Part shown: positions 918 through 35,971 of the stretch, in pieces | Layout: the number at the start of each line of letters is the position of its first letter | How positions within the stretch are numbered: position 1 is the stretch's first letter | NCBI GenBank assembly: GCA_902492935.1 | Contig: CABUNJ010000004.1 | Location: 38,589 to 102,588, forward strand | Length of the DNA: 64,000 bases | DNA from: an uncultured Collinsella sp. | Lineage (GTDB): Bacteria > Actinomycetota > Coriobacteriia > Coriobacteriales > Coriobacteriaceae | Reading direction: 5' to 3' | The notes under the pieces: generated by a model | Database searches by the model: none | What the model saw: the letters and a program-made list of their open reading frames with translations, nothing else | What the model was told of the DNA's origin: nothing | Made by a program: the position numbers and the translations under genes

Positions 918-2705
918 ATGAGCCAGACCCGTCCCATCGACGAGCATTCCATGCACACCCGTACCTGCGGCGAGCTTCGCCGCGAGAACGTGGGCGAAGA
1001 GGTCACCCTCACCGGTTGGGTGAGCCGTCGCCGCGATCACGGCGGCCTTATTTTCTGCGACCTTCGCGACCGCGAGGGCATCACGCAGCTCACCTTCGAC
1101 CCCGAGCACTCCGACGGCGACGCCTTTAAGATTGCCGAGACCATGCGTCCCGAGTGGCCCATCAAGATCCACGGCGTCGTGCGCTCCCGTGGCGAGGAGA
1201 CCACCAACGCCAAGCTCGCGACCGGCGAGATCGAGGTCCTGACCGACCACGCCGAGGTGCTCAACACTTCCGTCACCCCGCCGTTCCAGATCGAGGACGG
1301 CATCGAGACCAGCGAGGACACCCGTCTGCGCTATCGCTATCTGGACCTCCGTCGTCCCGAGATGATGGCTAACCTCAAGCTGCGCTCCGACTTTACCTTT
1401 GCCATTCGCGAGGCGCTGCACAACCGTGAGTTCATGGAGGTCGAGACGCCCTCCCTGTTCAAGTCTACGCCCGAGGGCGCCCGCGACTTCATCGTCCCCA
1501 GCCGCATCCAGCCGGGCAACTTCTACGCCCTGCCGCAGTCCCCGCAGCTTCTGAAACAGCTGCTCATGGTCGGTGGCGTCGAGCGCTACTACCAGGTTGC
1601 CAAGTGCTTCCGCGACGAGGACCTGCGTGCCGACCGTCAGCCAGAGTTCACCCAGGTCGATATCGAGATGTCTTTCGTGGACCAGAACGATGTCATGAGC
1701 GCGCTCGAAGAGGTCCTGTCCGATGCCTTCGGCCGCATGGGCGTCGAGATGCCCACGCCGCTGCGTCGCATGGACTACTGGGAGGCCATGGACACCTATG
1801 GCTCCGACAAGCCCGATACCCGCTATGGCATGCACCTGGTCGACCTGACCGACATCTTTGCCAACTCCAAGTTCAAGGTCTTTGCGACCGCCGCAAACGA
1901 GGAGGGCTCTGTCGTCAAGGCCATCAACGCCAAGGGTGCCGGTGCCTGGGCACGTGCCAAGATCGATAAGCTCGCCGGCGTGGCCTCCACGTTTGGTGCC
2001 AAGGGTCTGGCCTGGATCGCCTTCCGCGAGGACGGCTCCATCAACAGCCCCATCGTCAAGTTCTTCTCGGACGAGGAGATGGCGGCTCTGCGCGAGCGCA
2101 TGGACGTCGAGCCCGGCGACCTTGTGATGTTCGCCGCCGGCCCGCGCCTGCTCTCCGACGAGATTCTGGGCGGCATGCGTTCTCACATGGCCAACGCACT
2201 CGAGATCAAGCGCGAGGGCCACGACTTCCTGTGGGTCGTCAACTTCCCGCTGTTCCACTGGGATGAGGATCGCAAGGCCTATGCTGCCGAGCACCAGCCC
2301 TTTACCCTGCCGACCGAGACCGACATCGCCAAGATCGAGGCTGACCCGCTGGCGGCCGGTTCTTGCACCTACGACTTTGTCATGGACGGCTTTGAGGCTG
2401 GCGGCGGCGGTATGCGTATCCACAACGCCGAGATGCAGATGTCCATGCTCAAGCTCCTGGGCTTTACCGAGGAGCGCGCCGAGTCGCAGTTCGGCTTCCT
2501 CATGGAGGCCCTCAAGTTTGGTGCGCCCCCGATGGGCGGTTTCGCTCTGGGCCTGGACCGCGTGTGCATGCTGCTCACCGGTTCCGACTCCATCCGTGAC
2601 GTCATGGCGTTCCCCAAGACGGCCAGTGGCTCCGACCTCATGTCGGGCGCCCCGAGTGCCGTTAGCGGAGCCCAGCTCAAGGACGTCAGCCTGCGCCTGA
2701 TGTAG
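918..2705 (+). CDS. aspS: aspartate--tRNA ligase (class II)
   Basis: 595 aa. Motifs FRDEDLRADRQPEFTQVD, GGGGMRIH, GLDR. AAAGGAGG lies upstream of the ATG. Confidence 0.93.
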   Translation: MSQTRPIDEHSMHTRTCGELRRENVGEEVTLTGWVSRRRDHGGLIFCDLRDREGITQLTFDPEHSDGDAFKIAETMRPEWPIKIHGVVRSRGEETTNAKLATGEIEVLTDHAEVLNTSVTPPFQIEDGIETSEDTRLRYRYLDLRRPEMMANLKLRSDFTFAIREALHNREFMEVETPSLFKSTPEGARDFIVPSRIQPGNFYALPQSPQLLKQLLMVGGVERYYQVAKCFRDEDLRADRQPEFTQVDIEMSFVDQNDVMSALEEVLSDAFGRMGVEMPTPLRRMDYWEAMDTYGSDKPDTRYGMHLVDLTDIFANSKFKVFATAANEEGSVVKAINAKGAGAWARAKIDKLAGVASTFGAKGLAWIAFREDGSINSPIVKFFSDEEMAALRERMDVEPGDLVMFAAGPRLLSDEILGGMRSHMANALEIKREGHDFLWVVNFPLFHWDEDRKAYAAEHQPFTLPTETDIAKIEADPLAAGSCTYDFVMDGFEAGGGGMRIHNAEMQMSMLKLLGFTEERAESQFGFLMEALKFGAPPMGGFALGLDRVCMLLTGSDSIRDVMAFPKTASGSDLMSGAPSAVSGAQLKDVSLRLM

Positions 2706-4267: not shown

Positions 4268-4370
4268 GTACAACCGGTTGCACCGTTAACCCGACCAAAT
4301 CGACCGTTCAGCGGACAACCGGTTGCACAGTTTTTTGCATCGCCCGTAAGATAAGGACAACCGGTTGCAC
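4268..4370. promoter_or_regulatory. three copies of a near-palindromic operator GKACAACCGGTTGCAC
   Basis: Copies at 4268..4283, 4313..4328 and 4355..4370, in the divergent LacI / beta-galactosidase intergenic region. Confidence 0.6.
4283..4308 (+). promoter_or_regulatory. bipartite direct repeat CCGTT-N16-CCGTT (copy 1 of 4)
   Basis: CCGTT at 4283 and 4304, 21 bp start to start. The second half is AAATCGACCGTTCA. Confidence 0.45.
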
Positions 4371-4387
4371 AAGAATCACTACGATGA

Positions 4388-7411
<3,024 letters not shown>

Positions 7412-15119: not shown

Positions 15120-15211
15120 GGCGGGATATGACCCACCTGAGCAAAGCGCTCAAGTTCGGTGTTCGGGGACGCCAACCGGTCCGCAATACATGCAAGTCAC
15201 GGCTCCGGCAA

Positions 15212-15237
15212 CCGTTGAACGGACAAAATCGACCGTT
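15212..15237 (+). promoter_or_regulatory. bipartite direct repeat CCGTT-N16-CCGTT (copy 2 of 4)
   Basis: CCGTT at 15212 and 15233. The second half is AAATCGACCGTTCA. Confidence 0.45.
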
Positions 15238-15252
15238 CACCCCATGGTGGTT

Positions 15253-15306
15253 AGGTGAACGTTCACCTTTTGAGTTGCAATGGATTAGTATAGTGAACGT
15301 TCACCT
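15253..15306. promoter_or_regulatory. two AGGTGAACGTTCACCT operators upstream of uxaC
   Basis: A perfect 16-bp palindrome at 15253..15268 and AGTGAACGTTCACCT at 15292..15306. They flank TAGTATAGT. Confidence 0.65.
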
Positions 15307-20075: not shown

Positions 20076-20141
20076 TATCTCATGGGTGTCCAGCATGGCA
20101 TCTTTACCAGCAGACAATAGGTCTTAGAGCCTCAATTGTGT

Positions 20142-20167
20142 CCGTTCAGCGATAAAAAACGACCGTT
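20142..20167 (+). promoter_or_regulatory. bipartite direct repeat CCGTT-N16-CCGTT (copy 3 of 4)
   Basis: CCGTT at 20142 and 20163. The second half is AAAACGACCGTTCG. Confidence 0.45.
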
Positions 20168-20181
20168 CGGGGATAATATGC

Positions 20182-20237
20182 AAGTGAACGTTCACCTCTT
20201 GTAAGGAATCGCGCATAATCTAGATAAACGTTCACCC
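20182..20237. promoter_or_regulatory. two AGGTGAACGTTCACCT-type operators upstream of the GPH transporter operon
   Basis: AAGTGAACGTTCACCT at 20182..20197 and AGATAAACGTTCACCC at 20222..20237. Confidence 0.6.
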
Positions 20238-26732: not shown

Positions 26733-27401
26733 ATGGAAACGAAGAGCTTGAGTGAATCGACCATTTGCTGCTTTGGCGACTCAACGACCTGGGGCGACAA
26801 CGGCTGCGGTGGGGGAGGCAACGACATCTCGTGGACCTCGCATTTGGGCGCGTTGCTGGGAGGTGCGGTCATCGAGAACTTTGGCATCAAGGGTTCGCGT
26901 ATCGCCATCAAGGCCGACCGCAGCGATTCGTTTGTCGAGCGCCTGGACGGCATCGACAATGCGGCTGATATTTACATCGTCTTTGGCGGCGTCAACGACT
27001 TTAGCCGCAACGTGCCGCTTGGCGAGTTGGGTTGTACCGATGTGCACGAGTTCTATGGTGCACTCGATTACCTGATCCGCACCATCACGGCGCGTTCGCC
27101 CCAGGCAAAGCTTGTGTTTATGACGCCGTGCAAGACGAGCGGTAAGCACGAGAAGGATATCCCGGCAAGCGATGAGCTCAATCACCTGGGGTTGACGCAG
27201 GTCGCCTACGTAAAGGCGATGCTCGAGGTCTGTGACCGCTACTCCGTTCCGGTGATTGACCTGTATGCGCAAAGTGGCATCAGCCCGTTTTTGCCAGAGC
27301 ACCGCGAGCTCTATATGCCGGACGGTCTGCATTACAGTCCTGCCGGCTATGAGCGCCTGGCGCATCGCATCGCCGCGGGTCTCACCGCCGTTTGCCGCTA
27401 A
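26733..27401 (+). CDS. SGNH/GDSL hydrolase (candidate acetylesterase)
   Basis: Blocks FGDSTTWG, GGVNDF, DGLHYS. ATG 26733 follows GAGGAG. Confidence 0.75.
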   Translation: METKSLSESTICCFGDSTTWGDNGCGGGGNDISWTSHLGALLGGAVIENFGIKGSRIAIKADRSDSFVERLDGIDNAADIYIVFGGVNDFSRNVPLGELGCTDVHEFYGALDYLIRTITARSPQAKLVFMTPCKTSGKHEKDIPASDELNHLGLTQVAYVKAMLEVCDRYSVPVIDLYAQSGISPFLPEHRELYMPDGLHYSPAGYERLAHRIAAGLTAVCR

Positions 27402-27416
27402 AAGTCTGCCGTTTGC

Positions 27417-27483
27417 GGGGAATATAGGGTTAACGTTCACCCTATATTCCCCGTTCGCGTTACACTAGGGGTAACGTTCACCT
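27417..27483. promoter_or_regulatory. 36-bp near-perfect palindrome containing one operator, plus a second operator
   Basis: GGGGAATATAGGGTTAACGTTCACCCTATATTCCCC at 27417..27452 (1 mismatch) and GGGGTAACGTTCACCT at 27468..27483. Confidence 0.6.
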
Positions 27484-34896: not shown

Positions 34897-34999
34897 AGCG
34901 ATCCTTTCAAAAGAAACGTTCATCTATATAAGTCTTGCTTTTCATACAAGGTCAGTATAGATGAAGCGGCGTAATAGCCACCCCTTATTTCCTAAAATC

Positions 35000-35015
35000 A
35001 GGTGAACGTTCACTT
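35000..35015. promoter_or_regulatory. AGGTGAACGTTCACTT operator upstream of kduD
   Basis: 15/16 match to the palindrome, about 105 nt upstream of the kduD start. Confidence 0.55.
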
Positions 35016-35056
35016 TTAAAAGGCGAACGGCAGTCTTGTCCTTGCCGCACGGACGT

Positions 35057-35749: not shown

Positions 35750-35844
35750 AGCTATACCTTTCATTACAAAATTCATCTGAGCTATTTTAGCGCACCACGG
35801 ATGCAATATTGGCCGCTGGATTTGAGTCGGGCAGCTTAGATATA

Positions 35845-35870
35845 CCGTTCGCAGCGCAAATACGACCGTT
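35845..35870 (+). promoter_or_regulatory. bipartite direct repeat CCGTT-N16-CCGTT (copy 4 of 4)
   Basis: CCGTT at 35845 and 35866. The second half is AATACGACCGTTTA. Confidence 0.45.
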
Positions 35871-35878
35871 TACCGAAT

Positions 35879-35971
35879 ACATCAGATGTATTTCGAGCAA
35901 ATTTCAAAATGAAACATCAGACCTTTCCAAAACACGTTATAGTCATCAGACGAATTCAAAAGGTCTGATGA
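35879..35971. promoter_or_regulatory. ATCAGA-type GntR operator candidates
   Basis: Palindrome ACATCAGATGT at 35879..35889, AACATCAGACC at 35913..35923, and the 9-bp inverted repeat TCATCAGAC-N11-GTCTGATGA at 35943..35971, which overlaps the RBS region of gntP. Confidence 0.5.

Follow-up and report, generated by a model that had tools for sequence, protein, structure and literature searches.

What single control could reach sugar operons that each answer to an operator of their own? The question is raised by a 64,000-nt stretch of DNA (the window, C4:38589-102588) from the 2.2-Mb, 60% G+C genome of an uncultured Collinsella sp. (G000), in which several such operons are preceded by the same direct repeat, CCGTT-N16-CCGTT. 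Members of Collinsella are common in the human gut, and how abundant they are has often been tied to diet and metabolic state. We consider it somewhat better than an even prospect that the repeat is the operator of one global factor in Collinsella and its family, the most likely protein being RR1, a BtsR/LytR-type LytTR response regulator encoded outside the window, acting as an activator. The regulon would comprise about 50-60 promoters serving carbohydrate uptake and catabolism, the pyruvate/phosphoenolpyruvate (PEP) node and the arginine deiminase pathway.

A direct repeat with 21-bp phasing

An exact pattern search recovered the four copies listed in a preliminary description of the window just where they had been placed, all on the + strand, together with a fifth that had been missed, at 27388..27413 (+), 5' of a glycoside hydrolase (GH) 88/105 gene. 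The window thus holds five matches vs 0.12 expected, a number reached by none of 100 shuffles. From the first pentamer to the start codon the distance is 120 nt for the beta-galactosidase gene (start at 4403), 147 nt for uxaC (15359), 122 nt for the MFS_2 permease gene (20264), 103 nt for the GH88/105 gene (27491), and 139 nt for gntP (35984). The sites and their neighbors are as follows, scored with the weight matrix described below.

4282..4314, + strand: direct-repeat site 1, ACCGTTAACCCGA-ccaaatcg-ACCGTTCAGCGG; exact match, 21.7 bits
4403..7411: target of site 1, GH2 beta-galactosidase gene (GH2 by Pfam), 88 nt downstream
15211..15243, + strand: direct-repeat site 2; exact match, 30.5 bits
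15359..16786: target of site 2, uxaC (UxaC by Pfam, E = 3e-202), 115 nt downstream
20141..20173, + strand: direct-repeat site 3; exact match, 36.9 bits
From 20264: target of site 3, open reading frame (ORF) beginning an MFS_2 (GPH) permease and GH28 operon (MFS_2 by Pfam)
27387..27419, + strand: direct-repeat site 4; exact match, 32.5 bits
27491..28747: target of site 4, GH88/105 gene (Glyco_hydro_88 by Pfam), 71 nt downstream
35844..35876, + strand: direct-repeat site 5; 43.2 bits, the top-scoring site of the genome
35984..37345: target of site 5, gntP (GntP_permease by Pfam), 107 nt downstream
34998..35030, - strand: possible sixth site; 28.1 bits
34087..34923, - strand: neighbor of the possible sixth site, kduD-like SDR gene (SDR by Pfam)

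The octamer CGACCGTT, thought at first to be fully conserved, is present in the four copies originally listed, whereas the fifth reads CTGCCGTT, and genome-wide its CGA is a preference only, with C at 35 of 59 sites and A at 44 of 59. On its own the octamer was not enriched in the window (6 found vs 3.1 expected), and the signal therefore resides in the phased pair. Across the whole genome, a spacer of 16 gave 22 exact pairs vs 2-11 at every other spacer from 8 to 29; as this was the sole enriched spacing, the 21-bp phasing is strict, as the preliminary description had proposed. An iterated weight matrix of 34 nt converged on tACCGTTyrCCGa-N9-tACCGTTyrCCGa, with a period of 21 bp and an A/T-rich spacer center, in which the conserved block at -1..+9 recurs at +20..+31. 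At a threshold of at least 20 bits the matrix found 55 sites in the genome vs 0 in the reversed genome, and at 18 bits or more, 61 vs 4. Called genes take up 85% of the genome, yet 57 of these 61 sites fall outside them, so that the density of the motif in coding DNA is far from similar. The median distance from the end of the motif to the start of the longest ORF was 106 nt (interquartile range 80-167, n = 43). The setting of 59 sites was classified as follows.

Between divergent genes: 23 sites
Between convergent genes: 0 sites
Tandem region, co-oriented with the downstream gene: 22 sites
Tandem region, anti-oriented to the downstream gene: 7 sites
5' part of a called (longest) ORF, including the uxaC site: 4 sites
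Contig edge: 3 sites

A 34.6-bit site at C8:33327-33359 (-), kept across the genus, comes just 3' of a terminator-like hairpin and falls within the longest reading frame of a ComF-like gene. Its place is probably directly 5' of the true GTG start of that gene, leaving almost no room for a leader.

Many intergenic copies are also what a non-regulatory dispersed repeat would leave, such as a repetitive extragenic palindromic (REP)-like or miniature inverted-repeat transposable element (MITE)-like sequence or a recombination site. However, conservation is confined to 33 bp, the flanks of the sites are unrelated, the spacer is free to vary except for its A/T bias, and the copies go with a single functional class of genes and persist at equivalent promoters from genus to genus, leaving this explanation a negligible chance. 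A second reading takes the pentamers as the -35 and -10 elements of an alternative, ECF-like sigma promoter with a 16-bp spacer. The 16-nt spacer and a downstream element with CGT are reminiscent of ECF promoters, and the strong coding-direction bias of the sites would suit a promoter. Yet one 12-mer forms both elements, where distinct sigma domains would each call for a sequence of their own; 7 of the 29 tandem-region sites point away from the gene, some with high scores; half-sites form an inverted pair in one region (C8:21883); and the distance to the start codon is long and variable. The seven reversed sites cannot be put down to noise: their scores run up to 37.8 bits, and no fewer than three of them stand before genes for a phosphotransferase system (PTS) EIIAB(man) protein, L-lactate dehydrogenase, and a LacAB/RpiB isomerase. 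We regard a sigma promoter as very improbable. Since the same 12-mer recurs in the same direction two helical turns apart, the site is better read as binding two identical subunits head to tail than a sigma factor or a palindrome-binding dimer.

Target genes and conservation in the family

Targets were taken as the 47 nearest downstream genes, about 38 of which were run against Pfam. Transport functions were represented by a GntP permease, an MFS_2 permease, a sugar-binding protein, and PTS genes encoding seven EIIC proteins (including a fructose-type IIB-IIC), IIA(lac), EIIA(man), and EIIAB(man). Sugar catabolism was represented by members of GH1, GH2, GH32, and GH88, by GalK, UxaC, a SIS-domain protein, a PfkB kinase, and a TAL/FSA aldolase, and by a Gfo/Idh/MocA oxidoreductase and a KduD-like SDR; fruK/fruA were among the sugar targets. 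Beyond sugars, sites preceded the genes for Ldh, AdhE, pyruvate phosphate dikinase (ppdK), and PEP carboxykinase (pckA) at the pyruvate/PEP node, and, in the arginine pathway, those for two arginine deiminases, a carbamate kinase, and argininosuccinate synthase (ArgG). The two arginine deiminase genes are nearly identical, each has a site 115 nt upstream, and one has a second, reversed site about 230 nt farther upstream (C31:1359-1391 (-), 1622-1654 (+), and 4446-4478 (-)). One LacI-type and one YheO-type regulator gene also carry sites. The YheO-like protein, with a 32-bit site upstream of its gene, was considered as the factor itself and judged unlikely, as it would have to bind a direct repeat as a helix-turn-helix dimer; we treat it as a target. 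With about 55 mostly non-coding sites 5' of carbohydrate and pyruvate/PEP-node genes, lying upstream of or abutting LacI-/GntR-type local operators, and with a motif conserved across the family, the proposal of a global carbon regulator placed over several specific regulons is supported.

Conservation was followed in 24 congeners, where ACCGTT-N16-CCGTTYR occurred 3-14 times per genome vs 0-5 in the reversed control, and 18-48 times vs 2-14 with three mismatches allowed. The motif was enriched in every one of these 24 genomes and in each of the six genera that make up the family Coriobacteriaceae here, and was not enriched in 16 genomes from 12 other families of the order. A partial exception was one of these families, f6, with a few canonical-looking sites 5' of genes for PTS EIIA, a GH35 beta-galactosidase, galT, and a GntR regulator; a look-alike site there (L085) is set in a stretch that resembles a mobile element and is not orthologous. 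The 33-bp motif and both local operators were almost unchanged among 57 distinct uxaC promoters of Collinsella, while the DNA upstream varied freely. All of the nearest UxaC loci in public genomes, at 97-100% identity, were from Collinsella, chiefly from the C. aerofaciens group. As uxaC is absent from nearly all other genera, it offers no footprint across genera. The best sites of genera g20 and g22 stand before two PTS EIIBC genes and genes for EIIC, EIIA(man), EIIB(lac), GH4, and LacI and GntR/UTRA regulators, and the EIIC is, by resemblance of its N-terminal sequence, the counterpart of one target in G000. No site was found within 350 nt of galK outside Collinsella, where the upstream context differs, galK lying inside operons.

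A LytTR-like site and its candidate regulator

The repeat had not been recognized as a described site, a view that does not hold, as its geometry and half-site match the operators of LytTR-family response regulators. Such operators consist of two repeats of 9-11 nt with spacers of 11-13 nt (PMC4847170). The same geometry is found here, with repeats about 21 bp apart and a spacer of 16 as the only enriched pentamer spacing, and the half-site ACCGTT(C/T)(A/G)CC resembles the experimentally defined LytTR half-sites of AlgR, BtsR, and BrsR.

The closest likeness is to the Escherichia coli btsT promoter, which reads ACCGCTTAC-N12-ACCACTCAG (full box gACCGCTTAC-atccctaaaata-ACCACTCAG, 134 nt before the ATG). 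Collinsella sites read ACCGCTTACCGAACAAATACAACCGTTCGCGG and similar, several of them only a few bases off the E. coli box. Both promoters share 9-nt direct repeats of the type ACCG(C/T)T(T/C)A(C/G), 21 bp apart, and an A-rich tract leading into the second repeat. The physiology is also alike, BtsS/BtsR being carbon- and pyruvate-related and ldh, adhE, ppdK, and pckA carrying sites in Collinsella. In contrast, BtsR is described as controlling btsT, whereas the Collinsella site occurs at about 55 promoters. A small regulon centered on a CstA-family pyruvate transporter, as expected of a strict BtsS/BtsR orthologue, was not found, and no CstA-family gene was recognized among the 47 nearest downstream genes, about 38 of them assigned by Pfam.

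The Pseudomonas aeruginosa AlgZ/AlgR system offers a LytTR core, CCGTTCGTC, that is nearly the Collinsella half-site CCGTT(C/T)(G/A)CC; the AlgR consensus is accompanied by the variants CCGTTTGTC, CCGTTCATC, and CCGTTTGGC (PMC4064291). AlgR is likewise global, with 157 loci reported by ChIP-seq (PMC4787818), and its sites work in either orientation. Most AlgR sites, unlike the strict 21-bp pairs of Collinsella, are lone 9-mers whose distances vary widely, and the AlgR regulon covers alginate, pili, and virulence rather than sugar catabolism. In Streptococcus mutans, HdrR and BrsR recognize ACCTCTTAG and ACCGCTTAT, direct repeats with a 12-bp spacer serving as activator sites 4-11 bp upstream of the -35 (PMC6193735); at the Collinsella beta-galactosidase promoter the predicted gap is 12 bp. 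These regulators differ in being without receiver domains, held by membrane inhibitor proteins, self-regulating, and devoted to bacteriocin and competence genes.

Three LytTR response regulators are encoded in G000. RR1 (245 amino acids, C16:42785-43522) lies beside the LytS-type kinase HK1; RR2 (C16:48671-49405) belongs to a system whose kinase gene, HK2, lies at a contig end (C20:91-1545) near genes for an amidohydrolase and an amino-acid permease; and RR3 lies beside an AgrC-like kinase. RR1 and RR2 are each 33% identical to E. coli BtsR, and both found BtsR and then LytR as best NCBIfam matches, below the equivalog cut-offs (173.7 vs 246 bits for RR1 and BtsR). A search of the PDB with RR1 returned only receiver domains. 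HK1 carries the Pfam domains His_kinase, HATPase_c, and GAF_3 and, as read from its sequence, two short hydrophobic N-terminal helices in place of the multi-pass LytS-type membrane domain, setting it apart from a strict BtsS kinase.

The three regulators differ in their distribution. An RR1-type protein was present in 40 of 41 and in 27 of 28 genomes searched, the misses being assemblies 59% and 96% complete, and RR1 is 98-100% identical across most Collinsella species. Orthologues of RR2 (at least 61% identity) are missing from genera g19, g20, and g21 and part of g22, which nevertheless keep the motif, and from several Collinsella genomes 98-99% complete with motif enrichment. Its absence from G012 and G014 had first been put down to contig ends, an account overtaken by the many complete motif-bearing genomes without RR2. 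RR3 is missing from G003, G005, and G013, which carry 7-12 exact sites each. As RR2 and RR3 are absent from motif-bearing genomes, RR1 is the only remaining LytTR candidate of the three, and co-occurrence, which is not proof, leads us to infer that it is the regulator, its binding to the repeat being a prediction. Binding by RR2 or by the Agr-like RR3 appears quite improbable. RR2 is as BtsR-like as RR1 by NCBIfam, and a related 21-bp-phased repeat precedes its own operon, self-regulation being typical of LytTR systems; the gaps in its distribution argue against it, as does family f6, with canonical-looking sites but no RR2, and RR3 meets the same difficulty in its three site-bearing genomes.

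The repeat at the RR2 system is a weaker, AlgR-like one in 21-bp phase, GCCGTTCGT-N12-GCCGCTCGT at C20:4599-4629 (-), 105 nt before the amino-acid permease-amidohydrolase-HK2-RR2 operon, and is possibly the self-regulated site of a second LytTR system. The start of the RR2 gene with about 110 nt upstream is present twice with few differences (C20:1-95 and C16:49350-49470), one copy following HK2 at the contig end and the other following a repeated element rather than a kinase, which could reflect a duplication or an assembly break. A short palindromic intergenic element, found as CTAGTCATTGGGGACGTTCTTAAACGACTAGT and near copies at C20:5835-5882, C1:26630-26670, and C16:~49470, looks like a MITE or the end of an insertion sequence.

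Local operators, promoter positions, and mode of action

The local operators named for these promoters were confirmed. There are three copies of ACAACCGGTTGCAC, at 4270, 4315, and 4357; palindromes of the GTKAACGTTCACC type lie at 15254, 15292, 20183, 27428, 27470, and 35001; and ATCAGA/TCTGAT boxes lie 3' of the gntP site. The ACAACCGGTTGCAC operator at 4270..4283 overlaps the first repeat of site 1 by 2 nt and that at 4315..4328 abuts the site, starting 1 nt after 4314, so that the local repressor and the global factor may compete or touch. Core promoters were predicted as follows.

4315..4370: predicted beta-galactosidase core promoter; -35 TGCACA at 4324..4329, -10 TAAGAT at 4347..4352
15254..15305: two local palindromic operators GTGAACGTTCACC, flanking the predicted uxaC -10 TATAGT at 15289..15294
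20214..20219: predicted -10 CATAAT of the GH28 operon; arrangement as at uxaC, repeat center near -69
27461..27466: predicted -10 TACACT of the GH105 gene; arrangement as at uxaC, repeat center near -70
35938..35943: predicted -10 TATAGT of gntP; repeat center near -90

At the beta-galactosidase gene, two ACAACCGGTTGCAC boxes cover the predicted -35 and start region and the center of the repeat falls near -60. At uxaC, the first GTGAACGTTCACC operator supplies a TTCACC -35 and the second covers the predicted +1, with the repeat center near -74; across the 57 uxaC promoters the GTGAACGTTCACC operators were invariant and TATAGT semi-conserved. In all five window promoters the local operators bracket the predicted -35 and -10, and the repeat lies upstream of both. 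A position about 60 to 90 bp upstream of the predicted transcription start suggests activation. The preliminary description had left the choice between activator and repressor open, and the former is favored because the site stands upstream of core promoter and local operators alike. Over the genome, a simple sigma-70 score found the best -10 box at +58..+74, counted from the first repeat, for 26 of 59 sites, and counts of TANNNT peaked at +71..+74 (15 sites), with a more diffuse rise at +32..+43.

From these positions a mode of action may be sketched. HK1 would sense a metabolic signal, probably intracellular, and would then phosphorylate RR1; RR1 dimers would bind the repeat about 60-90 bp upstream of the transcription start and recruit RNA polymerase, with the operon-specific LacI-/GntR-type repressors over the -35 and +1 holding a veto over whether the promoter can respond. 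As the 11-12-nt half-sites stand head to tail exactly 21 bp apart, the two subunits would occupy the same face of the helix. An intracellular signal is suggested by the build of HK1, with two short membrane helices and a GAF domain and without the multi-pass LytS sensor; for want of that membrane domain, a BtsS-like sensing of external pyruvate cannot be assumed. Since ldh, adhE, ppdK, and pckA carry sites, one may guess, but only guess, that the signal is a metabolite of the pyruvate/PEP node. Tentatively, and with clearly less than even confidence, we suggest that a BtsR-like LytS/LytTR system has expanded in Coriobacteriaceae from a one-gene switch to a master regulator of carbon catabolism whose kinase reads, through its GAF domain, an intracellular metabolite, perhaps of the pyruvate/PEP node.

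Several observations weigh against RR1 acting as an activator at the repeat. The assignment to the LytTR family comes from resemblance of the site and from co-occurrence. Every other family of the order has RR1 orthologues (55-69% identity) but no enrichment of the motif, so that the presence of RR1 alone does not predict the motif. The HK1-RR1 operon has no site of at least 10 bits within 5 kb and no 21-bp repeat upstream, unlike the many LytTR systems in which self-regulation is common. The orientation bias in tandem intergenic regions is not strict (22 vs 7), and the predicted -10 boxes stand at no single distance, with further clusters at +32..+43 and near +93. Because -10-like boxes also occur directly 3' of the repeat, some sites may overlap the core promoter, which would suit repression.

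The case for RR1 comes from sequence and distribution, and this gives room to a global regulator of another tandem-binding family, either a DeoR-type, SugR-like repressor or an AraC/XylS-type activator on 21-bp-phased direct repeats; such a regulator seems unlikely to us, though far from fanciful. Corynebacterium SugR is a DeoR-type repressor of PTS and glycolytic genes, and the content of the two regulons is alike (PTS genes, fruK/fruA, ldh, and the pyruvate node). The genome encodes two AraC-family proteins and, as judged from their sequences, DeoR-type proteins, and a DeoR-type repressor would fit any sites that overlap core promoters. Against both families, the half-site is an unbroken 11-12-nt block in agreement with three independent LytTR consensus sequences. 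AraC-type sites would be expected as two boxes one helical turn apart in each repeat, and while the 21-bp period fits, the block is contiguous; both AraC-family genes are moreover in apparently local contexts, one by a HAD hydrolase gene and the other by ABC exporter genes. For a repressor, a repeat upstream of the local operators and the predicted -35, as in the five window promoters, would be unusual.

Activation by RR1 would also fill a place that the usual global systems appear to leave vacant. No match to HPr kinase (PF07475) was found anywhere in G000, which is 99.97% complete and rich in PTS genes, so that catabolite repression of the Firmicute type via HPr-Ser-P is not available, and CRP-type helix-turn-helix domains gave only weak matches in the genome; on these two grounds the usual systems are absent or not evident. 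The overall design, one type of site over many sugar regulons and pyruvate/PEP genes, is that of CRP-cyclic AMP (cAMP) in Enterobacteria, CcpA-cre in Firmicutes, and SugR in Corynebacterium. CRP and CcpA, however, bind palindromes as helix-turn-helix dimers, whereas the Collinsella site is a direct repeat. What is known of the LytTR family concerns mainly quorum sensing, bacteriocins, autolysis, and one pyruvate transporter. A search of the literature with the half-site words, Collinsella regulons, and LytTR sugar regulators found no description of the motif or regulon, and a global role in sugar and energy metabolism appears not to have been described there for a LytTR-type regulator. The type of site is already known; what would be new is to find it serving a whole family as a global catabolic operator, under a kinase that is built differently. 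A single 33-bp site at about 55 catabolic promoters provides a handle on sugar choice and predicts the regulon, names one candidate regulator and kinase, and predicts a system above the LacI-/GntR-type local switches. Should the protein prove to be of the LytTR type, it would represent a third solution to global carbon control besides CRP-cAMP and CcpA-HPr, and would show the family to be capable of such control as well.

At the possible sixth site of the window, 34998..35030 (-), the second half coincides with a local GTGAACGTTCACC operator (35001..35014), and the site may thus be either hybrid or spurious. The pectin/hexuronate palindrome has a half-site, AACGTTCACC, one base off the global half-site, ACCGTTCACC, and this likeness could mean either cross-talk between the two kinds of operator or a false positive.

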